A stretch of DNA of 64,000 nt. Source: Escherichia phage ECBP1. The stretch lies in sequence record NC_018854.1; one strand, written 5' to 3'. A program made the position numbers and the translations under genes. Positions 7,496 to 47,300 of this stretch are shown piece after piece. The notes beneath the pieces were generated by a model. That model was not told the DNA's origin. It saw nothing but the letters and a program-made list of their open reading frames with translations, and did not search any database. The first letter of the stretch is position 1; each line of letters starts with the position of its first letter.

Positions 7496-7694
7496 CTTGG
7501 AGGTAACAACTATGCTAATCCCTTTTGAAGTAATCTCTCAGTTAATACTGATAGTTTTATCTGTACTGGTTCTGTCTACAATAGTTCATGCCCACAAATC
7601 TAAGTTTGCTTATTACTACTATGGAGCATACTCACTAGGCTGCTTTGTAATGGCAGGATGGATAGCTTTTGCTATCTACTGTGTAAACAACTAA
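7479..7694 (+). CDS. small membrane protein
   Basis: 71 aa with two hydrophobic segments. Confidence 0.4.
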   Translation: MRHIFCLEVTTMLIPFEVISQLILIVLSVLVLSTIVHAHKSKFAYYYYGAYSLGCFVMAGWIAFAIYCVNN

Positions 7695-7721
7695 CCCTCC
7701 TAACGGAGGGTTTATTTTTTT
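7695..7721 (+). terminator. intrinsic terminator
   Basis: ccctcc-taac-ggaggg followed by tttattttttt. Confidence 0.65.
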
Positions 7722-7768
7722 ACATGTCATGTATACTAACTCTGCTATTTACTTATGAGGAAATTGAT

Positions 7769-8602
7769 ATGCCAACTTTGAAAGTAGGTTTTAACAAAAC
7801 CACTAATGTTGCAACTGTACTGGATGCCAGTGGTTCTATCCCAGGTGGTTCCGTAGAAGTAGGAACCTTTGTACACCCAGATGCCACTTACCCTGATAGC
7901 TTAGTTATCTTCCATGGTGTTCGTGACCTGCTGTATAAACGCTCTGCTAAAGATCCTTCTAAAGAAGGCTTCTGGCCTAACAACATCGTGGATATGCAGT
8001 CTATCTCTATTGATATGAAAGCTACTCCACGACTGACTATTGCTACCAAACTGCCTCGTGTAGTCTCTACTATCGAAGGTGAAGACATCAACTGGCACGT
8101 TGATGTAGCAGGTGGGAAAGCACCATTTACTTATAAATGGCAATTCAAAGCTGATACTGCTGGAGCAGCATTCGCTGATATTGATTCAGGTGAGAACGAA
8201 TCCGCTGCTACTGCAACACTGACTCTTAATGACGTAACAGCTACTTCTGCTGGTACTTACAAAGTGATTGTTACTGATGCTAATGGAACCACGGTAGAGG
8301 ATGAGTCACTATTAGCTGTAGGCTATTACGAAGCAAGTTCACTGGTAGCTACTCCTGATTCGCTGGCTCTGTCTGTTGCTGCTGATACAACTGCTGGTAA
8401 GACTGTAACAATTGTTGCTATGCCTGTTGGTTCATCTTCTGGTGCTTTATCTATCAAGACTGCTCCAGATTCTGGTCGTGCTACGGCTACCATTGCTGGT
8501 AACGTACTGACAGTTAAGCCAGTGGCTGCTGGTGATACTACTTCTGTAGTAGTTACCAATGGTACGGTAGATATAACTATCCCTGTTACTGTTGCAGAAT
8601 AA
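7769..8602 (+). CDS. Ig-like (Big_2-like) tandem-domain protein
   Basis: Start moved from track 7658 to ATG 7769 (GAGG RBS; track start runs through a terminator); beta-rich T/V/A repeats such as TVTIVAMPVGSSSGALSIKTAP and VVVTNGTVDITIPVTV. Confidence 0.5.
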   Translation: MPTLKVGFNKTTNVATVLDASGSIPGGSVEVGTFVHPDATYPDSLVIFHGVRDLLYKRSAKDPSKEGFWPNNIVDMQSISIDMKATPRLTIATKLPRVVSTIEGEDINWHVDVAGGKAPFTYKWQFKADTAGAAFADIDSGENESAATATLTLNDVTATSAGTYKVIVTDANGTTVEDESLLAVGYYEASSLVATPDSLALSVAADTTAGKTVTIVAMPVGSSSGALSIKTAPDSGRATATIAGNVLTVKPVAAGDTTSVVVTNGTVDITIPVTVAE

Positions 8603-9541: not shown

Positions 9542-9871
9542 ATGAAAACTTTATTTAAAGGTATTGCAGTAGCTGCACTGATAGCTTTGGCTCCAAATGC
9601 ACAAGCTATTGAACCAGAACCAATTTTGGAAGGTGCTCAGGCTTATCTGGACAACACCCATGATGAGTTCGGACAAGGATTCTTCATGGGCAGTATGATC
9701 TCTTACATCGAGAACACAAATAACTGTGTTCCAGATGGTATGAAGTATTCAGACATTCTACCTAAGATTGCCAAAGTAGTTATTTATGACTCTGCAATCC
9801 TCAAACTGAAGAATACATCTCAAATTGTTGTGTACTCAGTACACAAGGCGTATCCCTGCACTAAATCTTAA
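9542..9871 (+). CDS. secreted/periplasmic protein with cleavable signal peptide
   Basis: MKTLFKGIAVAALIALAPNAQA|IEPEP: n-h-c regions with an AQA cleavage motif. Confidence 0.5.
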   Translation: MKTLFKGIAVAALIALAPNAQAIEPEPILEGAQAYLDNTHDEFGQGFFMGSMISYIENTNNCVPDGMKYSDILPKIAKVVIYDSAILKLKNTSQIVVYSVHKAYPCTKS

Positions 9872-9905
9872 TCAGTAATCCCATTAGCTTTAGGAGAGTA
9901 AGTAA

Positions 9906-10958
9906 ATGGCAAGCATTGACTCCTTGACTGTATGTAATTCACGTCAAGCTCGTAACTTTATTATTCGTGCCCTGAAAGCAGGTAACGTACCATTCCTGAC
10001 TTCATCACCTGGCATGGGTAAATCTGCAATCATTCGTTCTATTGCAGAAGAATTTGGTATGAAGTTGATAGATCATCGTCTGTCTACTTCTGCCCCAGAA
10101 GATCTTTCTGGTCTACCATTCCGTAATGGTGACCGTGCAGAGTTTATTCCATTCGCTGATTTATTCCCTATTGAAGGGGATGAAGTACCAGAAGGTTATA
10201 ATGGCTGGCTCCTGTTCCTTGATGAGTTCAACTCAGCTAAGAAAGAAGTAGTAGCTGCTGCATACAAACTAATTCTCGACCGTATGACTGGTCAGAAAAA
10301 ACTTCATCCTAATGTGATGATTGTCTGTGCTGGTAACAAAGCTACTGACCGTGCCATTGTTAATCCTCTGGGTACTGCAATGCAGTCTCGTGTGGTTCAC
10401 TTTGAAATGGAACTTAACTTCGACATCTTTGTTGAAGATGTAATGATTCCTCAACAATGGGATGAACGTCTGGTTGCATTTCTACATGCTAACCCAGGTT
10501 ATCTGCATGACTTCGACCCAGCCCATAAGAACAAAACATTCTGTTGCCCTCGTACTTGGGACTTTGTTAACAAAGACCTTAAGAATCAGCCGGAAGGTGC
10601 TCTTCCTGATGAAGATTCTATCTACTATGCAGGTCACGTTACTGCTGGTAAGGCTACAGAATTTGTTCAGTTTACCCAGGTATATAATCGTATGATTACG
10701 ATTGAGAAGGTAGTCAAAGACCCTATGGGTTGTGCACTACCAGAAGATAACAACCTGTGTTGGGCTACCGTTAACCATCTAGCTAACAAAACTACTGAAG
10801 AGAACTTCGCTGATGTTCTTCAGTACATCGAACGCTTTAAAACGTTCACCCATAAGATTCTGTACTTCCGTACAGTAGGCAGAACATTACCAGAACTTCA
10901 GGCTACTCCTGAATGGCGTAAGGCTGCTGCTAATATCTCTCGTTACATTCACGGATAA
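9906..10958 (+). CDS. AAA+ ATPase (MoxR-like; N4 gp24-like)
   Basis: Walker A SPGMGKSA and Walker B-like LLFLDEF; immediately upstream of a vWA protein. Confidence 0.65.
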   Translation: MASIDSLTVCNSRQARNFIIRALKAGNVPFLTSSPGMGKSAIIRSIAEEFGMKLIDHRLSTSAPEDLSGLPFRNGDRAEFIPFADLFPIEGDEVPEGYNGWLLFLDEFNSAKKEVVAAAYKLILDRMTGQKKLHPNVMIVCAGNKATDRAIVNPLGTAMQSRVVHFEMELNFDIFVEDVMIPQQWDERLVAFLHANPGYLHDFDPAHKNKTFCCPRTWDFVNKDLKNQPEGALPDEDSIYYAGHVTAGKATEFVQFTQVYNRMITIEKVVKDPMGCALPEDNNLCWATVNHLANKTTEENFADVLQYIERFKTFTHKILYFRTVGRTLPELQATPEWRKAAANISRYIHG

Positions 10959-10962
10959 AACA

Positions 10963-12138
10963 ATGAACCAATTTCCTCAGCACACACTTAGTGATGAACA
11001 ACTCATGCGCGAATATGACCGTATTCAGGCGCAGGCGTTTCTCGGACGCAGTGCTGCCTTCTTTGGTTCATTACTATGTAGTCTTAAATTCTCATGGAAA
11101 CGTGAGGATTGTCCCACTGCATGTACTGATGGGATAGAACTCCATTTCAACCCAGACTTCTTTATCTGGATGTGTCCAGATGCAAGGGAAACAGTATTAA
11201 TGCATGAACTATGGCATGTGGCATATCTACATGACATCCGTCGTGGAAGCCGTGACCCGGAAGTCTGGAACCAGGCATGTGACCACTTCATTAACCTTCA
11301 GTTAGAGGAGGATGGTTACAAGTTCACTGGTATTAATGAAGGCATTTGCAAAGACCCTCAATATAAAGGATGGGTCGAAGAAGACATCTACGATGACCTG
11401 ATGAAGAACCCTCAGAAAAGGCAGAAGCCGTCAGGGGGTGCTGGAGCAGGTCTTGCTGGCGACATGAAATCCCCCACTTCGGGACAGTCCCAGGGTGCTG
11501 TCGTCAACAACGTAGTACGTGCAATGCAGAGCCAGAAGATGGCTGGTGGAACAATGCCCGGTAAGGGTGCTGGTCGTATGGAAGAGGTTATTACCCAATT
11601 CCTTAAACCAGTGGTTCCATGGCAAGAAGTACTCATGAACTTCTTTACCGACATTGATGACACTCACTATACGTGGGCCAGACCTAACCGTCGTTACACT
11701 GACATTTATCTACCTTCCCTGGAAGATGATGAAGGACGTCTACGACACCTAGCCTACTTTGAGGATGTATCTGGTTCTATTAGTAGTGCTGACTCTCTGC
11801 GTTTTAACTCAGAGGTTGCCTACGTTAAGAGTCAATTCAATCCTAAGAAGATGACCCTAATCACCTTCGACGATGTTATCCAGGAAGAAATAGACATCAC
11901 TGAAGAAGATACTTTCGAAGAGATTAAGATTACTGGACGTGGTGGTACAAACCTGGAACCAGTACGCGAATGGATTATTAAGAATAAGCCAACCGCTGCA
12001 ATCATATTCTCTGATATGTATGTTCGTCCAATGGAAGAATTGCCATTTGATATTCCTATCATCTGGTGTGTTCTGAATAATCCTAATGCTACCGTACCTT
12101 TTGGGGAGGTAGTTCATATCCCTAAAGGAATGAAATAA
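10963..12138 (+). CDS. von Willebrand factor A domain protein (N4 gp25-like)
   Basis: MIDAS-like DVSGSIS; zinc-metalloprotease-like HELWH in the N-terminal part. Confidence 0.6.
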   Translation: MNQFPQHTLSDEQLMREYDRIQAQAFLGRSAAFFGSLLCSLKFSWKREDCPTACTDGIELHFNPDFFIWMCPDARETVLMHELWHVAYLHDIRRGSRDPEVWNQACDHFINLQLEEDGYKFTGINEGICKDPQYKGWVEEDIYDDLMKNPQKRQKPSGGAGAGLAGDMKSPTSGQSQGAVVNNVVRAMQSQKMAGGTMPGKGAGRMEEVITQFLKPVVPWQEVLMNFFTDIDDTHYTWARPNRRYTDIYLPSLEDDEGRLRHLAYFEDVSGSISSADSLRFNSEVAYVKSQFNPKKMTLITFDDVIQEEIDITEEDTFEEIKITGRGGTNLEPVREWIIKNKPTAAIIFSDMYVRPMEELPFDIPIIWCVLNNPNATVPFGEVVHIPKGMK

Positions 12139-12644
12139 TGGTTGTTAATGGTAATTCTCTATATCGTTCATCTCAGTTGCTGGATGTCCCAGACCGTAAG
12201 ATATCCGAGCATGGTGTAAGCTATGGATTAGGTGAAGCTGGTTATGATATTCGTATCAAACAGGATATTACCTTCTATCGCTTATTTGGGTTGATTCCAA
12301 TGGTGAAAGTCGTTGATGGAGGTCAAGTATCACGCCATCTAGGTAAGTTCGCGTTGGCATCTGCAATTGAGAAGTTCAACATGTCCCCATCCTGTGTAGC
12401 TATCGTTCACGATAAGTCTACATGGGCAAGACGTGCATTATCTGTGTTCAATACCGTAATAGAACCAGGATGGAAAGGGTATTTGACTCTTGAACTGGTC
12501 TATCATGGTCGTAAGAAACTACATATCCCGGCTGGTGCTGGGATAGCTCAAGTATTATTTCATCTGGTTCAGGAACCTGCTAATTACAATGGCAAGTATA
12601 TGAACCAGGAAAACAAACCAGTGGCTGCTAGACCTTCAAAATAA
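12138..12644 (+). CDS. dCTP deaminase/dUTPase-fold protein
   Basis: EPGWKGYLTLEL resembles the dCTP deaminase IDPGFRG..TLE motif; GYDIR earlier. Confidence 0.5.
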   Translation: MVVNGNSLYRSSQLLDVPDRKISEHGVSYGLGEAGYDIRIKQDITFYRLFGLIPMVKVVDGGQVSRHLGKFALASAIEKFNMSPSCVAIVHDKSTWARRALSVFNTVIEPGWKGYLTLELVYHGRKKLHIPAGAGIAQVLFHLVQEPANYNGKYMNQENKPVAARPSK

Positions 12645-36542: not shown

Positions 36543-36571
36543 AGCCCCTCATTAGAGGGGCTTTTTCATTT
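36543..36571. terminator. bidirectional intrinsic terminator between the converging plus and minus blocks
   Basis: agcccctc-atta-gaggggct with an A-tract upstream and T-tract downstream. Confidence 0.65.
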
Positions 36572-39500
36572 AGTTAGTAAGGTTGAGCCAAGGGTTCAGG
36601 TTGTGGGCACGTAAGCCTTGACCGAAACCGAAGGAGTAACCGAGATTTCCCTGTGCAGCAATACTAAAGATGTTGTCCTGAATAGGCAGACCAACGTTAC
36701 CAAACATGGTAGGGGTTGGAGCCAACATAGCCATAGCAGCATGGACTGGGTTATTACGAATCATGGACACTGCAACTTTTGCAGAACGAATCTTAAAGTT
36801 ATAGAACCACATCAGACCAACACTTTCCATATACCCACGGAATCGACCAGGCAGACGGTCATAGTTAATGAACTCTTCCGTTACACGCCCCAGTGCTTCT
36901 TCACGAGTCTTACCTTTACGCTGAGTCAGTTCATCATAGATGATTGCTTTAGCAATAAAGTCAGAGTACTCAACCGTCTTCTGAATACCCTGGAAGAGAG
37001 CAGTATCCTTAGTGATAAGTGCATAGCGACCTGCGTTACGAACAGACTTAGGCAGCTTATCAGCCAGCTTTTCCATGTATTCGTGGAGTTTACCTTCAGT
37101 AATCAGGATGTCATCACGACCAATACCAGCATCTGCAATTGAAGAGAACTCACCAGCTTCCAACAGAGGCCAGATACTCAAACGTTTATGGCTATCAGAG
37201 ATGGACTGAATCTCAGCCTTGAGTTTACGAATCTGGTTCGGGTTAGTAGCTGCACGTAATTCTGCTTCTGCATCTACCTGACGCAGACGAGATTTCAGGT
37301 ACTGGTTAATCTCAGCAGTCTTCTGTGAAATGCTCTTAGCAATGTTCTTAACCGGTACACCACGAGCAACCATCTGATAAAGGTTAGCCAGGAAGTTAAC
37401 AGCAGGTACGACTACTGACTTAACCACAATCAGAGTCTTAGCTTCTTTAACTAAGTTCTGAACCAGGTTCTCACCACCCATTACATACTTATAGGCACGG
37501 TTGCCAAAGACACCCAGCATAGCTTTCTTGAAGGTATCCAGTGTTTCTGGTGACCAACGGGAATTACCAGACCAGGCATCACCTACAGAAGCTGCACGAT
37601 AACCCAGAGCATCGTTGAGCATGTCACGACGTACCCATAATTCACCCGGACCAAACAAACTTTCTGCTTTCTGACGGGTTTCACTGTTCATCAGCTTAAG
37701 TGCATCGGCAGTTACTGGGTCCAGTTTAGAACCAAGAAGGTTAACGTACTGGGACTTATTAGAAGCAGACATCTTAATGTCGTTCTCATACATGCTATGC
37801 AGGTTTTCAATCAGCATATCGTTGAATCGCTGAGCCTTAGCTTCTTCCACCTGACGACCACGCCATACACCGATTGCACGAGCAAGATGGTTCTCACCTT
37901 CAATGTGCTTCAGCATGTTAGGGTCAATGGATTGCTCATAAGCAACCACATTACCATTGGCATCATATACAGGCAGCAGTGGTTCATTACCACGTTCACC
38001 ACGAGCCAGTGCTTTAGTGATACGGTCTACGGAAGGCTTGTCAGTGATACGACCAGCTACCATGGTTCCCATAGTAAAGCCCGTACCGAGATCTACACCA
38101 CCAGCAGTATTACGAACGTTCTGTAAGATACCTTGCGAGAAAGGAGCCTGTGCCTGTACTGGTGCAAAGTAGTAGCTACGTGCTGGTCCACGATTAGCAG
38201 AGCTACCCTGATAAGTACCAAGACGTACATAGGATTTCTCAATCAAATCAGCAAACTGACTATCTTCAGCAACAATCAGGTTAACACCCTGCTTGTTCTC
38301 GCTAGGGATATACCCTTTGTACTGGTTCAAGGTTGCACGACTATCAGACTTAGCTTTAGCCATTTCATCTTTACGCTGACCAACCAGATAAGAAGTAGCA
38401 AAGTCCATGCCTTCAATTTCTGTCTGAGCCAGTGAAGATAACATCTCACGGTCAGTCTTATTCATTGCTTCCAGTGCATACAAAGTAATCAGTTTATCCA
38501 ACTGAGCTACATCTACAACAGAACGTGTAGTCTTACGTTCACCCAGTAAACGAGAAATTGCAGTAGCATTACGTAGCAGGTTGTTACCAACCGTACCTTT
38601 AATCATGTACTGAGCCAGTTGCTTAGATTTACGATTAATCAGAGGCCAGTTTCGTCCAGCTTGTTTCTGCAAATCTGCTTCCAGTTTATTAACCTCACGG
38701 TCAACAATCTTTTGGTCAGTCAGCAAGTCACGGATTTCATCCAGAGACATAGTGTCACGCAGAACAGCTAAGTCAGTTTTACCCATACCAGTATGCATTG
38801 CTTTCCACTCTTCATTAGTCAGCTTACGGCTGAACTTAGATGCGATAGTGGTAGGCAAGTGTTCACGGAACTGTTGACGGTCAGCCTGTACCTGTGCACG
38901 TACTGCCTTAATCAAATCATATACAGAAGCATTGCTCTTAGTACGTCCGATTATGTCATTAACCAGGTCATGGAAAGGTTGCCATACTTTACCCTGGTTC
39001 ATTGCAGCCATAACACCTTCGGCTACGATTGCACCATTCTTCTCTGTAGCAATAGCAGCTACCAGTTGTGCAGCATGAACAGCACCTTTGACCAATGGAT
39101 TCTTGGTATTAGCTGCAATTTCACGAGCACCTTCTAAAGCACGGGTAGACAATGCATCAATAGAGTCCACCAAATACTGGTTAGCACGGTCGATAGCATT
39201 ACCGGTAGGAGTAGCAACGGAATCATAGAAGGATTCTGCGTTAAGACTGGTCTGCATGATTGTCTGAGCTAATGCATCCATACCTTCCTGTACGTTAGTG
39301 GCTTTAGTATCACCTGCTACACGAGCGTTCAGACTAGCCATTGCAGCAGTACCGATGTTAGTCAGCATTGCATCAACAGTATTGCCGGATTTCTTATCTG
39401 CTTTCATGACAGGAATATCAGCCAGTACCTTACGTACCTCTTCACTTACCATTGCCAGACCAACAAAGGTAGGTAATAAGGAAGAGCGACCTTGAGCATC

Positions 39501-42500
39501 AAACTCAATGTTATTAGCACCCATGATGGTATCGAACTTCTGCTGTGCATAATAACGGTCAGCAGGGTTAGTACTATCCGGGTCAGCCATAAAAGCTTCA
39601 ACAGTCAGGTTCTTAGTAACATGTGTGTAGTATTCCTGTGCACGAGCCATAGCAGCTGGGTTAATAGCAGCCTCAGTAGCCAGTGCAGCAACAATGTTAG
39701 TAAAGAGGCGTTGTTCCTGCATATTCATGGTGAAGCCATGAGCCTGAACATCACGAGTTACTTTAGTTGCATTCACTACTGCATCAGAAAACTTACCTTT
39801 TCGAATTACTTGCTGTACTGGTTCTGAACCGATGTAGTCAGTAATCAGCTTATCAAAAGTCTTACCTAACTCTTCCAGACGAGTATTGTCACCATATGCT
39901 TTGTTATGGAACAGGGTAGTGTCTTTGGCCACAGCAGCAGTAGGAGCTTGTCCACGCATTACTACAGCAGAGTTAAACAGTAGGCCAGAGAACATATCAT
40001 CTGCATTAGCCGGAGCTTTCTTACGTCCAAATACCAGACGCTTGATTGCTTCATATACAGCCTGAACCATAGCTTTAAGTGCAGTGGTTTTCTTCTGCTT
40101 ACCAATCAATTCACGGTTGGTTAAGCCCCATGCCATGTACTCATTCAATGCAGCAGCTTTAGCCATTGCTGGTTCAATGAAGCCATTAGACAAATGACCA
40201 TTAATGGTATTGAGAGCATCAGCATATGCTTCACGTACTGCCGGGGGTTCATTCTTAACATCCAGAGTACGGAACTGGTTCATCAGGTCTTCAATGTTCT
40301 GGACTGCTTCATTAGGAGTGCCTTCATAGTGAGCCAGTACAGATTCAAAAGTAGAAGCATGAACCAATTCATGAACCAGAGTCTCTAAAGAAGGAGTAAC
40401 TAAATAGATGGTCTTATCATCAAAGTTAGTCCAGCCGTATGCATTACCTGCTTCAGCAGCTTCAATATCTTCCGGTGCTGGGCGAGTAATATTCTTCTCA
40501 ATAGCGTAGGCATCCAGTTGAGAAGGCGTACCATAAACAACCTTGTAGTCTTTAGCAGCAAGGGATTTCTGTACTTCTTTCAATACTGCTTGCTGTTCTG
40601 GAGACATCTCTTTAGCCAGCTTAGTGATAGCAGTATTGGACAACAGACGTACACCAGACTTCAGTACACGACCAACCTGTTCCATTGCCGGTACTTCTTT
40701 AGCTGGTTCTGCTTTAGCAGCACGTACTGCATCACGACGCTTATTTAATTCAGCATCAAACAGTTCGTTCAGCTTTGCTACTTGCTGGTCTACAGTCAGA
40801 CCTTCAAGAGAAATTTTACCGTCGTTCACATATGGAGCACCAACAGCAGCCATCTGGTCAACAGTGACTTGTACCTGGTTCATTACCTTGTGGCGAATAT
40901 CTACACCCAGAGCAATGTTACGCAGGTTACGTTCAATCTGTTCAGCACCAACACGTAACAGGTCATCAGTAGCACCTTCACGCTGGTCATATTCCAGAGC
41001 AGACTTAGCGATAGCCTGTTTGGTTTTATCAGACAGTTTGCTGAAGTCTACATTCTTCATGAACTTAGCGTAGGAGTCATAAACATTCTTGATAGGGTTA
41101 CCCTGCCAGGAAGTATATACAGCCTCATTAGCTTTACGACTTGCATCAGTAATGTCATTGATACCAATGTTCATACCATCAAAGATTTTCAGGGTATTCT
41201 TCGGAGCACCTTTCATAGTAGAAAGGGTCTGCATCATCATGCCATCACCAGTACCGATGGTCATAAATGGAATACCTGCTACACCTGCCTGTGAAGGAGC
41301 ATAGATGCTCATTGGCACACGCATACGGTCATCTAAGTTGGTAGCCAATACTTGGTTAGCAACATCAGTATTCTCACTACCAGCAATGTAGAAAGTCTGG
41401 GAACCAGTCTCAATCATTGGAGCCAATGGAGATAATGATTCCTGGATTTCATTCAATTCTTTCTGTGTTAAAAAATCACCCTTCTTCCATGTTGGGTCTT
41501 TTTCTTTTTCTGCCAGTTTCTCCTGAACACGTTGCTGGAACATGTCTTGCAGAACCAGAGATTGAATCTGGGTAGCTTTCTGCAAGTTCTCAGTAGAGTA
41601 CATCAGACCTTCACCCACGGTATTTCGGATACCAGTACGCATTGGTTCAACGAACAGATGGAGCATATTCTCCTGCAAGTTCTTCAGAGCATTACCTGAT
41701 ACAGTAAACTTCTGAGGGTCTAACTTACCAGTCAGAGCACCATCTACCTGCTGAATAGACAACTCACCTTTACGCATAACCGGAACATTACCAGTTAGTG
41801 CTTCCATAGAAGTAAGGAAAGTATCCAGCATAGCCTGAGCATCAGCCTCAGACGCAGCCTCCTTACCAAACATAGCCATAGCTGGGGAAATGCTAGGGTC
41901 AGCAGCACGGGCTTGTAGAACGTCACTGAATCGTTCATAGATGACATCAGTAATTGCACTAACCATTTTGCCTGCAATACCACGAGCACCAGAACCATAG
42001 ATGGTAATAGTCAGTGGGTTTTTAGCGATACCACGTTTCAGGTCCAGAGTACCATCTTCATTCAAATTAAAGTCTTTAATGAACAGGTCCATTAACTTCT
42101 GGAGATGGTTCATCTGGTTCATAACAGGAACGTTGTTACGGTAAGTACTACGTAATTCATTCAGTGCTTGTTGCAGACCATTAGTGGATGCTTCATACAG
42201 GTCAACGCTGTCCTCATGCGAATGATGCTCGTTCATGGTCTTACCAGCTTTACCGAAGAACAAACCACCTTTGGCAGTATTCTTAATCCAGTCTGGGGTG
42301 AACTTACCACCAGTCATTAATACCATTGCGTTGATTGGTCCGTTGGTTACACCATCAGCTTCAACGTACAGTGGGGTATTAAAGTTGGTACGGTCATCAC
42401 TGTTAAGGTAACGGGCATATTCCATCAGAGCCATAAGAGCTACGAATGATTTATCACTACCCAAAGAAGTCTTCAGAATATCCACTGCATCGGCAGGTAA

Positions 42501-45500
42501 GTGTCCAGACTTATCAAATTCAACCATCATATCAACGGCAGGTTTAAGTTTGCCTTCCAGAGCTTTAGTCAGCTCATCTGACATAACTTCACGGGACATT
42601 TTATGAACTTTGATACCCAATGCCTGAGCCAGTCCAAGCTGGAAGTCAGAGAACGTTTGACTGTTTTCATTACTTAAGTCGATGGTAGAGAAGGTTGGAA
42701 GGATTGCTTCACGAACCAGCTTACTGGATTGTGGGTTGTTCTTACCAAGCATCTGCATACGACCTACACGGGTCATGTTGTAGCCGTAGTGAATAGGTGT
42801 ATCCAGTCCATTCTCCTGTTCCTTAATTTGATTGATTACACCAAACAAGGAATCATACGCCATGGACACGGACAGGTTTTTACCTTCCAGAGACTTAGCA
42901 GTATTCACATTCAGCAATTCTGGATTAAGAGCACCAGCACCCATTAACTCCAGAATGTTGTCACAACCCAATGCTTCATAGAAATTAACCATCGGCATAT
43001 GTACACGAAACTCAGTAGCTTGTTCTGCTTTGAGAGCAGCTTTCTGTTCCGGGGTATTCTTAACAGCCGGGTTACGTAACTGAGTTTGAGCCACGGAAGG
43101 AATGTCATCACCCAGATACAATTTCTCTACTGGTTCTAAAAGGACAGTTTCCTCAATAGCAGTAGGGAATTTATTAATGGCATCGTTATCATCCAGCTTC
43201 TCAATGGTATACAGACCAACAGTCTTATTAGATTCTGGGTCAATCTCAGACACATCTAACATGGACTCTTTAACTTCACCCATCTCAATAAGGGAAGACA
43301 GAATCTCTGTAGCCATTGCCATTGGGATACCCTTGGTATACCCCAGAGGTGCATTAGGATTACGATTCAAACCCCAATAGGATTCAATCTTTTGAGCCAG
43401 TGAGTTAGTAGCTTCAACCAGGGTCTGAGCATTCTCGAAGTCAGCCAGAATACCTTCTGGTAGCAGAGATGCTTCCACACCAGTAATAGCAGCTACGTCT
43501 TTCATGTCTTTAACAGCAGCATTCTGTGTAGCAGTCAATCGCCATTGCAGACCAGCAAGTACAGCAGTTTCTAATAGCTGGTCATTGAACTTAAAGGTGT
43601 CACCATCTTTCTCTACGATGTTAAGTAACTTACCACCTACCCAACGGTTAGCCTCAGTACCTTCCGCAAAACGTTTACCAACGTTCTTGTTAGCAAGGAA
43701 CTTAGCCAGACGGTCAGACAGAGTAGTCTTCAGAGTTTCACCAAACTCAAATAAGTCCTGATAACGCTTAATCACATCACTTGTGAGAGCGTTATTTTCT
43801 TTTTGAGTGAATGCTTCAAAGCGAGCAGCAGAAGACAGTGCTTTCTTAACATCAGTCAAAGGAGATTCAGAACCAATGGTACGAGACTTAGGCTCTTCTG
43901 GTAGGGAAAATGCTTTAAGGAACTGGTTTGGTGTCTTATCATTATTATAGACAGGGAACACTGTTTCCATTTCCGATAAAGGTTTACCACCAACGGTATA
44001 GTCTGCTTTCAGTTGAGCCAGTGATACTTCTTCCTTCTCAACGTTATTGGTATTACGTTCAGACGTATCTACACCAATCTGAATAAGTGCATTGTTTGCT
44101 TCAACGAAAGATTGAACAGTATTGAATTGTTCAGCAGTCAGTTTCTGATTATCAAACAGTTGCAGAGATACAAATGGTTGCTCACTACCTTTATAGAAGG
44201 TAGAGCGAATAGCACCAGTATCCAGAGACATATCACGATAACCATCATGCCCAAATACGTCGGACAAGCTGATATGGTCGCCATTAGAACCAACCACAGT
44301 ACCATCAGCAAACAACCAAGGGCTTTCTCTACGGTCACCATTCTTATTAAGAGTTTCCTGTGAAATAGTATTTTCTTTCACATAAGCATCTCTTTCAGAT
44401 TCAGTAGTAGAGACTTCTTCTGCTTTTGGACTAGTCTCTTTAGTAGGAGCAGTCTTATTTTCTACCACTGGTTTATCTTTAGGCTGTACAGTAGTGGTGT
44501 CCTCTTGCACTAGTGCAGGAGTTTCATCAACCTGATTCACTGGTTCATTAGTCTGTTGAGACTGAGTGGCATCAAGACCACCTTGACGGAACTCTTTAAC
44601 TACCTGGGCAGCTGGCTTGTTCAGACGTGAATCCAACGAGGTAACTTTCACATGAGAAACATTAAGCTCCGGGTAAGCCGTAGCAAGTGCGTTAGCAATG
44701 TCAGCTACGGTCTTAGCTTCCAGTGCTACTTGCTGGGCAAACTTAACAGACTTGGTATCGTAAGGATTGACACCGAGGCCAGTACGACTACGTACCCATT
44801 CACGGGAAGGCGAGAGAGCCTGATAATGAACAGACTTATTCTTATCCGCATTCCCCGAAATCAGATGCTCATTCAACGCTCCGACCTTATTCTGCATGTG
44901 CTGGGCGAACTTCATAAAATCGCTCAGATAAGCGGAGGCCAAATCGAAGTTACCAGAGTTATACGCAGAACGAATGCGTTTCGCATGTTGCAACGCAGAG
45001 TACTGTCCTTCATTAGAACGAGACTCATCGGTTTTAATTTGTTTACTAACAATGTCTTGAGGACGTAAGCCTAGTTCTTCTGCTTTAGCGTCGAACTCTC
45101 GTGCACCCTGTAATAAGGCAGCAGCAGATTGCAGGGCAGCACGTTGACGATTCCCCAGTGTAATCTTACCTTCACTTGCATGTTTCAGAACCATGTTCAC
45201 TGAATCTGCATCCAGCACTTCTGGAGATACATCAGCAGCCATAGCAATGTTGTTTGCTTGGGCTTGATTAGCTTCTTCAGTAGCTTTCAGCTTACCCGCT
45301 TCAGCCTGTTCCTGAATCATGGAATGGATGGCACGAAATGCACGGAGTACTTTAGGGGTATTCTGTACGTTAGCCATCAGGCCGGAGAATTGGTCTACGA
45401 TTGCAGCAGCAGGGGAATCTTGTTCCAGATTAGCCAAAGCACCCGGGTCACGGTTAATGAAGCTATCCATAGACATGATATTGTCATACATCTGGATTGC

Positions 45501-47300
45501 AGCTTCCATTTGAACGTTAGGGTCTTCGGCAGTATTAACCAAGTCAGCCATCTTCTGAATAGCTTCTACACGGTTAGTGGAACCAGAAACAGCTTCACGG
45601 ATTGCTGGGTTAGTTTGTTCCAATTCTACCGGGTCAAACTTCATTGCTTGAGTTAAGTCAGCAGCATACTGGGTAGCAGCAGCTTTCTCTTCTGGAGAAA
45701 TATCCATTGCATCCACTGCTTCCTGAACAGTTGCTTGAGCTTGTTCTGCCTGAGCAGTAGCTTCTTGTGCAGCAGCGTTAACCGTAGCATCAGATACGGG
45801 GGATGCTTGTTCATTACGCTTAGCAACTTCTTCCCCACGTTGAACCAGGATGTTAGTAATAGGAGAAGCTACTTTTGCTAGTGCCTTACCAGCCAAAGAA
45901 GCACCAGCCAGGGTAGTACGTACAGCAGGACCAACGGCAGCACCAGCAGCCTTAACAGTTGCACCAGGAGCTTGAGCAACTCCAGCAGAACCGAAGCCAT
46001 ACAATGCACCAAGACCGGTTTGTTCACCCACACCTTTAAGCAAATCACGCTTAGCATCTACATTACCTTGAATTGCCTTGTTCTGTGCAAACTGACTTGT
46101 ACCAGACTGGATACCTTCTTCTACAGTCTCACGCAGCATGTTAGAACCAGCACCAGCCAGTGAACCTACCTTAAGTGGATTAAGTTCAAACTTGGATACC
46201 AGTGGACCAGTAAGAGCAGCAACCGGAGCAGTTAAGCCAGCAGCAGTAATACCCGTTTCAGATGCAGTCTGGCGACGTGCTTCTTCAGGAGATAAACCGT
46301 CTTTAATATGCTGTTGGTATACAGGAGATTTAGCAGCCAATTCACTGAATGGCATTTCCATAATTTCATTAGCAGTCTGTTGGTATGCACCACCAGCTTC
46401 CATACCACCAATTGCTATAGCAGGTGCAGCAACACGACCAGTAGCTAATGCAGTACGTGCAGGACGTGAACCTAACTCAGCAGCTAAGGTAATGCCTTTA
46501 ACAGCTTTATCACCACCTACCATTACTTTACCGAGTGCAGATACACCACGAATCAATGGACCGCCGGTAAAGAGAGAACCAACACCCTCAGCCAGACCAT
46601 CAGTAGCAGCCATGCCATTGGACAAGGTGTTAGCAACAGAATCGTAAGCATCTCGACCAATGCGAGACAGGGAAGCAACGAGATCACTTTCTCCTTTAGC
46701 AATATCCTGCTTATAGAGTTTCTCGTTTTCCTGTGCAGATATTACGTTCTGGTTCTGTACTACATTACGACGAGCATTTAATGCATCAGACTGTAGGTTG
46801 TGTACACCTTTATTCAACCAGTCAAGACCGGAAGCAATGGTTGCCCCGGCATTATCATTGACCAAGCCTGTACCAAGAGCAGCAATGCCCCCAAGAGTAT
46901 TAGCAACACCAAGACCAACACCAGAAAGGGTATCACCAAGTGCTTCACCATATGTACGACTCTTAGTTAAATCACGACGAACAGCATTAGCTGCATTGAC
47001 ACGAGCATTGAGAATGTCCATTCCTTGCTCATTGCCATACTTGTTTATGATTTCAAGAGGAGAGGCATTAGTAAAATCTGCCTGAAAAGAACCTGGGTCA
47101 AATGCACCAGCACCTAAGTTACCAGCACGGCCTGCCTGTAATTGGTAAGCGTTCTGTGGGGTTAGTTGGAAGGGGCTTTGCCCTTGTTCAGCTTGTTTCC
47201 GAGAGGTTGCAGTAGAGACATCGACTTGCTTAGCAGTAGTGATGCTGTCTGCGAAACCTGCCAGACGGTCAAATGTTGACATAGCATGATTCCTGTTCAA
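36570..47300 (-). CDS. virion-encapsidated RNA polymerase (N4 gp50-like giant vRNAP)
   Basis: 3576 aa; T7-like RNAP motifs LYVEADGVTNGPINAM, TITIYGSGARG and KIFDGMNIG in the central region. Confidence 0.85.
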   Translation of the reverse strand: MNRNHAMSTFDRLAGFADSITTAKQVDVSTATSRKQAEQGQSPFQLTPQNAYQLQAGRAGNLGAGAFDPGSFQADFTNASPLEIINKYGNEQGMDILNARVNAANAVRRDLTKSRTYGEALGDTLSGVGLGVANTLGGIAALGTGLVNDNAGATIASGLDWLNKGVHNLQSDALNARRNVVQNQNVISAQENEKLYKQDIAKGESDLVASLSRIGRDAYDSVANTLSNGMAATDGLAEGVGSLFTGGPLIRGVSALGKVMVGGDKAVKGITLAAELGSRPARTALATGRVAAPAIAIGGMEAGGAYQQTANEIMEMPFSELAAKSPVYQQHIKDGLSPEEARRQTASETGITAAGLTAPVAALTGPLVSKFELNPLKVGSLAGAGSNMLRETVEEGIQSGTSQFAQNKAIQGNVDAKRDLLKGVGEQTGLGALYGFGSAGVAQAPGATVKAAGAAVGPAVRTTLAGASLAGKALAKVASPITNILVQRGEEVAKRNEQASPVSDATVNAAAQEATAQAEQAQATVQEAVDAMDISPEEKAAATQYAADLTQAMKFDPVELEQTNPAIREAVSGSTNRVEAIQKMADLVNTAEDPNVQMEAAIQMYDNIMSMDSFINRDPGALANLEQDSPAAAIVDQFSGLMANVQNTPKVLRAFRAIHSMIQEQAEAGKLKATEEANQAQANNIAMAADVSPEVLDADSVNMVLKHASEGKITLGNRQRAALQSAAALLQGAREFDAKAEELGLRPQDIVSKQIKTDESRSNEGQYSALQHAKRIRSAYNSGNFDLASAYLSDFMKFAQHMQNKVGALNEHLISGNADKNKSVHYQALSPSREWVRSRTGLGVNPYDTKSVKFAQQVALEAKTVADIANALATAYPELNVSHVKVTSLDSRLNKPAAQVVKEFRQGGLDATQSQQTNEPVNQVDETPALVQEDTTTVQPKDKPVVENKTAPTKETSPKAEEVSTTESERDAYVKENTISQETLNKNGDRRESPWLFADGTVVGSNGDHISLSDVFGHDGYRDMSLDTGAIRSTFYKGSEQPFVSLQLFDNQKLTAEQFNTVQSFVEANNALIQIGVDTSERNTNNVEKEEVSLAQLKADYTVGGKPLSEMETVFPVYNNDKTPNQFLKAFSLPEEPKSRTIGSESPLTDVKKALSSAARFEAFTQKENNALTSDVIKRYQDLFEFGETLKTTLSDRLAKFLANKNVGKRFAEGTEANRWVGGKLLNIVEKDGDTFKFNDQLLETAVLAGLQWRLTATQNAAVKDMKDVAAITGVEASLLPEGILADFENAQTLVEATNSLAQKIESYWGLNRNPNAPLGYTKGIPMAMATEILSSLIEMGEVKESMLDVSEIDPESNKTVGLYTIEKLDDNDAINKFPTAIEETVLLEPVEKLYLGDDIPSVAQTQLRNPAVKNTPEQKAALKAEQATEFRVHMPMVNFYEALGCDNILELMGAGALNPELLNVNTAKSLEGKNLSVSMAYDSLFGVINQIKEQENGLDTPIHYGYNMTRVGRMQMLGKNNPQSSKLVREAILPTFSTIDLSNENSQTFSDFQLGLAQALGIKVHKMSREVMSDELTKALEGKLKPAVDMMVEFDKSGHLPADAVDILKTSLGSDKSFVALMALMEYARYLNSDDRTNFNTPLYVEADGVTNGPINAMVLMTGGKFTPDWIKNTAKGGLFFGKAGKTMNEHHSHEDSVDLYEASTNGLQQALNELRSTYRNNVPVMNQMNHLQKLMDLFIKDFNLNEDGTLDLKRGIAKNPLTITIYGSGARGIAGKMVSAITDVIYERFSDVLQARAADPSISPAMAMFGKEAASEADAQAMLDTFLTSMEALTGNVPVMRKGELSIQQVDGALTGKLDPQKFTVSGNALKNLQENMLHLFVEPMRTGIRNTVGEGLMYSTENLQKATQIQSLVLQDMFQQRVQEKLAEKEKDPTWKKGDFLTQKELNEIQESLSPLAPMIETGSQTFYIAGSENTDVANQVLATNLDDRMRVPMSIYAPSQAGVAGIPFMTIGTGDGMMMQTLSTMKGAPKNTLKIFDGMNIGINDITDASRKANEAVYTSWQGNPIKNVYDSYAKFMKNVDFSKLSDKTKQAIAKSALEYDQREGATDDLLRVGAEQIERNLRNIALGVDIRHKVMNQVQVTVDQMAAVGAPYVNDGKISLEGLTVDQQVAKLNELFDAELNKRRDAVRAAKAEPAKEVPAMEQVGRVLKSGVRLLSNTAITKLAKEMSPEQQAVLKEVQKSLAAKDYKVVYGTPSQLDAYAIEKNITRPAPEDIEAAEAGNAYGWTNFDDKTIYLVTPSLETLVHELVHASTFESVLAHYEGTPNEAVQNIEDLMNQFRTLDVKNEPPAVREAYADALNTINGHLSNGFIEPAMAKAAALNEYMAWGLTNRELIGKQKKTTALKAMVQAVYEAIKRLVFGRKKAPANADDMFSGLLFNSAVVMRGQAPTAAVAKDTTLFHNKAYGDNTRLEELGKTFDKLITDYIGSEPVQQVIRKGKFSDAVVNATKVTRDVQAHGFTMNMQEQRLFTNIVAALATEAAINPAAMARAQEYYTHVTKNLTVEAFMADPDSTNPADRYYAQQKFDTIMGANNIEFDAQGRSSLLPTFVGLAMVSEEVRKVLADIPVMKADKKSGNTVDAMLTNIGTAAMASLNARVAGDTKATNVQEGMDALAQTIMQTSLNAESFYDSVATPTGNAIDRANQYLVDSIDALSTRALEGAREIAANTKNPLVKGAVHAAQLVAAIATEKNGAIVAEGVMAAMNQGKVWQPFHDLVNDIIGRTKSNASVYDLIKAVRAQVQADRQQFREHLPTTIASKFSRKLTNEEWKAMHTGMGKTDLAVLRDTMSLDEIRDLLTDQKIVDREVNKLEADLQKQAGRNWPLINRKSKQLAQYMIKGTVGNNLLRNATAISRLLGERKTTRSVVDVAQLDKLITLYALEAMNKTDREMLSSLAQTEIEGMDFATSYLVGQRKDEMAKAKSDSRATLNQYKGYIPSENKQGVNLIVAEDSQFADLIEKSYVRLGTYQGSSANRGPARSYYFAPVQAQAPFSQGILQNVRNTAGGVDLGTGFTMGTMVAGRITDKPSVDRITKALARGERGNEPLLPVYDANGNVVAYEQSIDPNMLKHIEGENHLARAIGVWRGRQVEEAKAQRFNDMLIENLHSMYENDIKMSASNKSQYVNLLGSKLDPVTADALKLMNSETRQKAESLFGPGELWVRRDMLNDALGYRAASVGDAWSGNSRWSPETLDTFKKAMLGVFGNRAYKYVMGGENLVQNLVKEAKTLIVVKSVVVPAVNFLANLYQMVARGVPVKNIAKSISQKTAEINQYLKSRLRQVDAEAELRAATNPNQIRKLKAEIQSISDSHKRLSIWPLLEAGEFSSIADAGIGRDDILITEGKLHEYMEKLADKLPKSVRNAGRYALITKDTALFQGIQKTVEYSDFIAKAIIYDELTQRKGKTREEALGRVTEEFINYDRLPGRFRGYMESVGLMWFYNFKIRSAKVAVSMIRNNPVHAAMAMLAPTPTMFGNVGLPIQDNIFSIAAQGNLGYSFGFGQGLRAHNLNPWLNLTN

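Follow-up and report, generated by a model that had tools for sequence, protein, structure and literature searches.

An AAA+ ATPase and a putative zincin-like metallopeptidase with a von Willebrand A domain in Escherichia phage ECBP1: relationship to the gp24-gp25 module of phage N4

Identity of the gene pair

Two adjacent genes of Escherichia phage ECBP1, located at positions 9906-12138 of the 64,000-nucleotide stretch analyzed here (NC_018854.1; hereafter, the window), were originally predicted to encode a MoxR-like AAA+ ATPase and a von Willebrand A (vWA) protein with an HExxH motif in its N-terminal part. The locus raises the question of whether this motif belongs to a metalloprotease-like module that is fused to the vWA domain and partnered with the ATPase and, if so, what such a pair would do during phage infection.

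Both open reading frames (ORFs) were confirmed on the + strand in the ORF list, ORF A (350 aa) at 9906-10958 and ORF B (391 aa) at 10963-12138. Each is 62% identical, over its full length, to a protein of phage N4, ORF A to gp24 and ORF B to gp25, and the gene order is as in N4 (RNAPII subunit, Hoc-like decoration protein, several small genes, gp24, gp25, dCTP deaminase, ThyX, and rIIA/rIIB). At the nucleotide level, the 2.2-kb region is 93-95% identical to approximately 56 Gamaleyavirus genomes (G7C-like, N4-like coliphages), the best match being phage HK2 (94.9%), and the two proteins are 97% identical to entries of the public collections searched. Judged from these sequence comparisons, the pair is almost certainly the Gamaleyavirus version of the N4 gp24-gp25 module, and the two products will be called gp24 and gp25. 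Apart from the genus, which is Enquatrovirus for N4, no difference of substance from the N4 pair was found; the stop of ORF A and the start of ORF B are separated by 4 nt in ECBP1, while the intergenic distance in N4 is 167 nt. In N4-like phages, gp24 ("AAA+ ATPase") and gp25 ("vWFA domain") are listed among the approximately 14 core genes (PMC2784036, PMC4193335, PMC7650795, PMC10783043) and are expressed as middle transcripts (PMC4193335, PMC7650795, PMC2784036).

Homologues of ORF A and ORF B with 79% identity were also found on JANQNF010000027.1, a 69-kb contig labelled "MAG: archaeon isolate PL23a_bin.95", which has the size of an N4-like phage genome and is almost certainly a phage contig that was binned into an archaeal metagenome-assembled genome (MAG).

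The zincin-like and vWA domains of gp25

The N-terminal part of gp25 (aa 17-253) matched the Pfam family DUF2201_N, described as a putative metallopeptidase domain, with E = 1.4e-56 and a score of 192.6 bits against a cut-off of 23.2, positions 3-270 of the 271 positions of the profile being covered. The C-terminal half of the protein has a vWA fold and matched DUF2201 (VWA-like domain) above the gathering score at aa 263-386 (11749-12120; E = 1.4e-34). The suggestion that a metalloprotease-like module is fused to the vWA domain was thus borne out, and HELWH (aa 81-85) indeed lies inside the DUF2201_N match and upstream of the metal ion-dependent adhesion site (MIDAS) motif at aa 268-272. Proteins that combine the two families bear the source name "predicted metal-dependent peptidase" at JGI. 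The DUF2201 family, which we take to be COG3864, comprises 21,718 cluster representatives with E ≤ 0.001, and NCBIfam holds no family for ORF A or ORF B. The original reading of gp25 and its partner is therefore correct but not new, the architecture being already described in Pfam, in JGI, and by Iyer et al. 2021 (PMC7824862), and the genes being known N4 core genes (PMC4193335, PMC7650795).

A bare HExxH is weak evidence, because the motif is expected by chance about 0.007 times per protein of the size of gp25 and 0.35 times over all 51 large ORFs of the window. One other occurrence was found in these ORFs, HELVH at aa 2310 of a 3576-aa ORF (36570-47300, - strand; taken, by its size only, as the virion RNA polymerase), and is consistent with chance. 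Conservation among homologues is therefore the test, as had been pointed out with the original prediction, and the motif proved to be widely conserved: H81, E82, and H85 do not vary among the 57 N4-like homologues of gp25, HExxH occurs in 138 of the 150 sequences that represent clusters at ≤50% identity, and it was also found in 53 of the 62 full-length homologues from genome contigs.

Residues outside the motif are conserved as well. Across 22 phage and genome-contig sequences, F33, H81, H85, H90, R93, A105, D107, N111, and Y143 are invariant in the N-terminal domain, resulting in the signature HExxHxxxxH...WNxAxDxxIN, and the mean column identity of the domain over the phage and genome-contig set is 38%. 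In gp25, HELWHVAYLH (aa 81-90; 11203-11232) comprises HExxH and a third conserved His, five residues past the second one; from its place in the signature, this residue, H90, may be a metal ligand. D107 (11281-11283), in the WNxAxDxxIN helix, is a candidate further ligand or catalytic-site residue; it is invariant in the 57 N4-like homologues and in the 22 sequences, and is kept in 146 of the 151 sequences of a wider set that includes the 150 cluster representatives.

The search for zincin-like folds, proposed as a check of the original prediction, returned recurrent, weak matches to known zincin families. When a profile of the 22 N-terminal domains was compared with the PDB, the M48 peptidase 3c37 was found with E = 0.03 and the minigluzincin MJ1213 (4qhi) with E = 1, and both alignments span the HExxH helix and the strand that precedes it. 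A search of the PDB with the single sequence of gp25 gave nothing at E ≤ 1. Secondary Pfam matches of the 22 members were to SprT-like (nine members), Peptidase_M48 (eight, best E = 4.3e-4), Peptidase_M78 (three), Astacin (two), and DUF5700, M91, and M56 (one each); the remaining ones, equally weak and limited to one or two members each, were to unrelated families. On these sequence similarities, a zincin fold is very likely for the N-terminal domain of gp25.

In the vWA domain, the MIDAS motif DVSGS (aa 268-272; 11764-11778) is completed by T329 (11947-11949) and D351 (12013-12015). None of these residues (D268, S270, S272, T329, and D351) varies among the 57 N4-like homologues; in the wider set, the first three are present in 151 of 151 sequences, T329 in 149, and D351 in 150. 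DxSxS is also kept in all genome-contig homologues, whether full-length or fragments. The AlphaFold2 (AF2) model of gp25, built from the 57 homologues, has a mean predicted local distance difference test score (pLDDT) of 78, with both domain cores near 90, and places the MIDAS residues after strand 1, in the GGT loop, and after strand 4. The protein thus appears, from sequence and model, to be made of three parts: a zincin-like metallopeptidase domain with HExxHxxxxH and an invariant Asp, whose core lies within the DUF2201_N match (aa ~17-150; 11011-11412; pLDDT ~90); a flexible, little conserved linker rich in Gly, Ser, and Gln, with low pLDDT and no alignment consensus (aa ~150-205; 11410-11577); and a vWA domain with a complete MIDAS.

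The partner ATPase and the conservation of the pair

In gp24, both Walker motifs, the sensor 1, and the arginine finger are intact, with residues that are invariant in 47 to 50 homologues, which suggests a catalytically competent AAA+ ATPase. The Walker A motif or P-loop, SSPGMGKS (aa 33-40; 10002-10025), is conserved in homologues, and P35, G38, K39, and S40 are invariant in 47 of them. Walker B was located at LLFLDE (aa 102-107; 10209-10226), where D106 and E107 are invariant. From their positions, N144 and R162 (10335-10391, from the first to the second) are probably the sensor-1 residue and the arginine finger; in the AF2 model, N144 is found at the end of strand 137-144 and R162 just before strand 164-168. 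K39, D106/E107, N144, R162, and R216 are kept in all 50 phage and genome-contig partner ATPases, and so are P64, D66, G69, and P71 of the family signature P-x-D-L-x-G-x-P, which lies in the helix-2-insert loop STSAPEDLSGLP (aa 60-71; 10083-10118). The mean column identity among N4-like homologues of gp24 and gp25 is 53-57%.

The description of the ATPase as MoxR-type was upheld at the level of the clade, but not at the level of the family. In Pfam, gp24 gave a generic AAA match (E = 5.6e-6), fell below the AAA_5 cut-off (17.4 bits versus 22), and did not match AAA_3. Among 47 homologues, matches at E ≤ 1 were obtained with AAA_5 in 45, with AAA_3 (MoxR proper) in 14, with bpMoxR in 12, all below threshold, and with Sigma54_activat in five; the partner ATPase of one genome-contig locus, L025, passes AAA_5 with 26.4 bits. 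The best PDB sequence match was midasin, followed by PspF, and midasin alone was retrieved in a single-sequence search (E = 3.8e-4). In the alignment with midasin AAA modules, the PxDLxGxP insert corresponds to their "TD..DLFG" segment.

The AF2 model of gp24 (pLDDT 86.5, predicted template modelling score 0.82, with low pLDDT in the loop aa 66-73) points in the same direction. The nearest solved structures were midasin (14.3) and dynein AAA modules (13.8-12.8), followed by CbbQ, a MoxR ATPase (12.5), and NorQ (12.2), and only a small margin separates these from clamp loaders and Clp ATPases (~12). Between strands 2 and 3, the model has a long insert (aa 59-99) that itself includes short strands, and further short strands (aa 127-133) precede strand 4 (aa 137-144); judged by predicted secondary structure rather than by coordinates, the helix-2 insert and the pre-sensor-1 beta-hairpin expected for the MoxR/midasin/dynein clade are present. 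An extra helical region occupies the C-terminal part of the model (aa ~215-350). The ATPase is MoxR-like at the clade level and, in Pfam terms, a divergent member that stays below the curated cut-offs.

The ATPase gene is uninterrupted in ECBP1. In the Gamaleyaviruses PW8 and pSb-1, it is split between the two Walker motifs by an insertion of ~870 bp, which falls into the invariant PEDLSGLP loop and contains an HNH endonuclease ORF. In PW8, the insertion is located at positions 708-1575 of L074 (equivalent to ~10100-10110 of the window), and the full Rfam model Intron_gpI matched it at 1220-1509, with 25.6 bits (E = 0.0014), under the gathering score of 50. The insertion probably represents a group I intron that encodes a homing endonuclease. 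Truncated ATPase fragments were also found in the protein database (P0141, P0145, and P0187).

The gene pairing was conserved far beyond the N4-like phages, which supports a functional link between gp24 and gp25. Homologues of gp25 were detected by tblastn in 745 phage records, including Schitoviridae, jumbo phages of 250-380 kb, and Vequintavirinae. Screening of 100,044 species genomes yielded 69 loci, some of which are N4-like phage contigs binned into MAGs. Of these genome-contig loci, 59 had a sufficiently long upstream flank, and in 57 of them a gp24 homologue precedes the gp25 homologue on the same strand; the predicted partnership of ATPase and vWA protein is thus conserved both in phages and in these loci. 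The ATPase gene is directly adjacent in 21 of the 57, and in the other 36 the two genes are separated by a gap that exceeds 150 bp and is most often ~930 bp long. Jumbo phage SonariX has both genes, with two small ORFs between them, and in the Vequintavirus AlexBoehm the ATPase is encoded 3.6 kb from the gp25 homologue, on the other strand.

In at least 23 of the gapped loci, the gap holds a gene for a conserved protein of ~300 aa with sub-threshold similarity to DUF3150. A hidden Markov model (HMM) built from 23 of these middle-gene sequences detected 34 copies in genome-contig loci, including copies that precede the ATPase gene, and gave no match at E ≤ 10 in the window or in the phage loci. 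This bacterial cassette of three genes (ATPase, DUF3150-like protein of ~300 aa, and zincin-vWA protein) was observed at L025 (3038-6158), L038 (3035-6179), L012, L022, and approximately 30 other loci. In the handful of loci in which the flanks were sampled, the neighbours of the three-gene version were Sipho_Gp157, PRTRC protein E, a RES toxin, ImpB, DUF4942, a DnaN (beta clamp) gene, and an ATP-dependent DNA ligase, which points to mobile elements. Two two-gene loci of Desulfobacterota were found in ordinary chromosomal contexts.

Within the ECBP1 locus itself, a Shine-Dalgarno sequence, AGGAG, was read at 9892-9896 (+), 9 nt 5' of the start codon of ORF A. The sequence TAATG at 12136-12140 (+) contains the stop codon of ORF B and, overlapping it by 1 nt, the ATG of the downstream dCTP deaminase gene, whose product matches Pfam DCD; this overlap suggests translational coupling between the two. 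The gp24 and gp25 genes are themselves co-transcribed and probably translationally coupled. Immediately 5' of the ATPase gene, an ORF of 109 aa (9542-9871, +) has a signal-peptide-like N-terminus (MKTLFKGIAVAALIALAPNAQA), and the corresponding gene carries the label "tai4 protein" in phage 24-32N. Further upstream, the ORF at 7658-8602 (+) is, by annotation only, the positional counterpart of a "Hoc-like head decoration protein" gene of phage 24-32N; N4 gp17, likewise labelled Hoc-like, occupies the equivalent position, as judged by location rather than by sequence comparison. This structurally labelled gene is part of the middle-gene block and lies 1.3 kb 5' of the pair.

Possible roles of the pair and comparison with known systems

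The explanation that we favor, with a probability of about 0.6, is that the N4 gp24-gp25 module works as an ATP-driven remodeller and MIDAS-targeted zinc protease; this figure blends near-certainty about the identity of the genes with somewhat less than even odds for the mechanism. The starting point is formed by gene identity, folds, intact catalytic and MIDAS motifs, and conserved pairing, which were observed, and from there we infer ring formation, docking, proteolysis, and the client. The mechanism is modelled on the solved MoxR-vWA pairs NorQ-NorD and CbbQ-CbbO and on the midasin ring with its MIDAS domain. By this analogy, gp24 would form an AAA+ ring, presumably hexameric, on which gp25 would dock via its vWA domain. 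The MIDAS metal of gp25 would grip an acidic residue of a client protein, ATP hydrolysis would remodel or pull this client, and the tethered zincin domain may then cut either the client or gp25 itself. In this view, the pair would work during the middle phase of infection as a site-directed metalloprotease coupled to a chaperone. These steps are tentative and, taken as a series, fall a little short of an even chance.

Several points weigh against this explanation. The catalytic Glu is missing from nine of the 62 full-length genome-contig homologues (L022, L026, L034, L036, L040, L044, L056, L062, and L064), which are mostly from Desulfobacterota, with one from an Armatimonadota MAG. In seven of the nine, both His are kept and the Glu is replaced by Thr, Ala, or Leu (HTxxH, HAxxH, and HLxxH); one of the nine has also lost the second His, and one is not alignable across the motif. 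These forms look like inactivated or repurposed peptidase domains, and the chemistry of the peptidase, apparently kept in phages, seems to have been lost in some cellular lineages and would therefore be dispensable there. The MIDAS is kept in all nine, and the function of the vWA domain is therefore the indispensable core of the family. In addition, the zincin assignment comes from the Pfam family description and from weak similarities; fold searches with the whole model were dominated by the vWA domain. The segment PVVPW...YTWARPNRRY..YLPS (aa ~205-255; 11575-11727), which lies within the DUF2201_N match, has an AF2 pLDDT below 50 and yet is conserved, with W220, W238, R243, R244, Y249, and P251 invariant in the 57 homologues; the proposed mechanism does not account for this segment. 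The characterized MoxR-vWA systems mostly remodel proteins or insert cofactors instead of degrading their clients. Finally, no functional study of DUF2201, PF13203, COG3864, or N4 gp24/gp25 was found in the searchable literature, in which gp24 and gp25 are covered by core-gene listings and by the jumbo-phage proposal (PMC7824862).

This last proposal is the source of a rival explanation, in which the pair would serve virion assembly as a chaperone and protease, with structural proteins being folded, assembled, and trimmed by it; this is a narrower form of the favored mechanism, for which a class of clients is named. Such a pair was described in jumbo phages by Iyer et al. 2021, who proposed that it acts in virion assembly and proteolytic processing and drew on Acidianus two-tailed virus, where tail development is driven by the MoxR/vWA pair p618/p892 (PMC7824862); a MoxR-vWA couple in the assembly of archaeal virus tails is also cited elsewhere (PMC7159879). 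In agreement with a structural role, the Hoc-like decoration gene, a homologue of N4 gp17 by position, is located in the same middle-gene block as the pair, the PVP-SE1 homologue is flanked by genes labelled "tail protein", and virion-protein genes lie near the gp24/gp25 homologues of the N4-like roseophage RPP1 (PMC4193335). However, the pair of N4-like phages sits among transcription, nucleotide-metabolism, and rII genes and belongs to a middle transcript, outside the late structural block (PMC4193335). A role in the virion also does not explain the bacterial cassettes found beside genes of integrative-element or plasmid type, although one Sipho_Gp157 neighbour was seen as well, or the apparently housekeeping contexts of other copies in Desulfobacterota. 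We consider this explanation unlikely, if still a serious candidate.

The same middle-gene position, next to rIIA/rIIB and to a superinfection-immunity-like gene, would suit a protease of host takeover or anti-defence, used by mobile elements to capture and cut a host protein soon after entry. Such a role would fit the occurrence of the pair in unrelated phage families and in bacterial islands resembling mobile elements, and mobile-element zincins of the ArdC-like and SprT-like kinds have been discussed as host-directed (PMC7824862). However, no known defence or counter-defence family was matched, PADLOC having returned for the pair a single and meaningless DolB match of 13.8 bits. The conservation reported above, both among N4-like homologues and in the zincin domain, is strong, whereas host-directed effectors usually evolve faster, and the target would need to be universal for a core gene of phages with very different hosts (PMC4193335). 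This explanation is improbable in our view. A wider version, in which phages of several families and integrative elements would share a biochemically new, two-component ATP-dependent metalloprotease, whose MoxR-class ring and MIDAS adaptor seize a specific client and feed it to the tethered zincin, thereby eliminating or processing a host protein during establishment (counter-defence or takeover), must be regarded as a long shot.

Proteolysis would play no part if the pair were a maturation factor that inserts a metal or cofactor or activates an enzyme, as NorQ/NorD, CoxD/CoxE, and the chelatases do, the His-rich site binding or handing off a metal without cleavage of a peptide. Most characterized MoxR-vWA pairs have such a role (PMC7159879), NorQ and the vWA domain of NorD are among the structural neighbours found here, and the variants that keep the His and lose the Glu are in line with it. 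Nevertheless, E82 is invariant in all 57 N4-like homologues and its counterpart is present in ~93% of the diverse representatives, the pattern of strand and HExxH helix aligns with active M48 peptidases, and no obvious metalloenzyme client is conserved beside the pair across lineages, all of which makes maturation without cleavage very improbable. Many homologues, including N4 gp25 and PVP-SE1 gp216, are labelled "HNH endonuclease" in RefSeq and by the PHROG family phrog_1314, but no HNH family was found at E ≤ 0.01 in Pfam and the two halves of gp25 are a zincin-like and a vWA domain. This identity was rejected and can hardly be right; the label is probably an error propagated from the name of the PHROG family, and its widespread use in RefSeq and in PHROG-based annotation looks wrong, a by-product of this analysis.

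The client of a remodeller and zinc protease of the kind that we favor would be of interest beyond ECBP1. The pair is among the approximately 14 genes common to all N4-like phages; it is also found in jumbo and rV5-like phages, and thousands of gene clusters of bacterial or metagenomic origin contain it. Identifying the client would close one of the few gaps left in the N4 core genome and would reveal whether a MoxR-vWA machine can be coupled to a protease.

Among known systems that couple an AAA+ motor to a zincin, FtsH is a functional analogy only. It is a single polypeptide with a classic-clade AAA module and an M41 peptidase, and has no vWA domain; an FtsH-type protease was rejected for the ECBP1 pair, in which the activities are on separate polypeptides and neither ORF matches M41. 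The ternary vWA-MoxR-VMAP conflict system (Kaur et al. 2020) was also rejected, as there is no third gene of this kind between or beside the pair and the DolB hit was the only PADLOC match.

The best Foldseek match of gp25 in the PDB was the VWA domain of CLCA1. CLCA1 and related proteins, which are self-cleaving, share the domain order of gp25, with the MIDAS-bearing vWA domain placed after an HExxH metalloprotease domain; they are secreted proteins of eukaryotes and lack an AAA+ partner. The likeness to the CLCA proteins concerns the vWA domain, which is the part that was compared.

The MoxR-vWA couples reviewed by Kaur et al. 2020 (PMC7159879) include midasin, the pair of Acidianus two-tailed virus (ATV), RavA-ViaA, and metal insertases of the CoxD-CoxE type. 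The ECBP1 pair resembles NorQ-NorD, CbbQ-CbbO, and midasin in the structural neighbours of its ATPase, its complete MIDAS, and its gene pairing, and the vWA domain of gp25 resembles the MIDAS domain of MDN1/Rea1 and the vWA domain of NorD. In contrast to gp25, the vWA partners NorD, CbbO, and midasin contain no peptidase domain, and the outcome of their action is remodelling or cofactor insertion. Compared with characterized MoxR machines, gp24 has the extra C-terminal helical region and misses the AAA_3 and AAA_5 cut-offs.

Many genome-contig members of the DUF2201 family differ from the phage pairs in that they belong to the three-gene cassette with the DUF3150-like protein, which was not detected in phage loci. 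The pair of jumbo phage subgroup 2.2 (PMC7824862) has the same architecture as that of ECBP1, i.e., a MoxR-type ATPase and a vWA protein with an N-terminal metallopeptidase domain. The proteins of that study, ASV44729.1 and ASV44728.2, were compared by description only, and jumbo phage homologues of gp25 found by tblastn cover 93-98% of its length with 23-31% identity.

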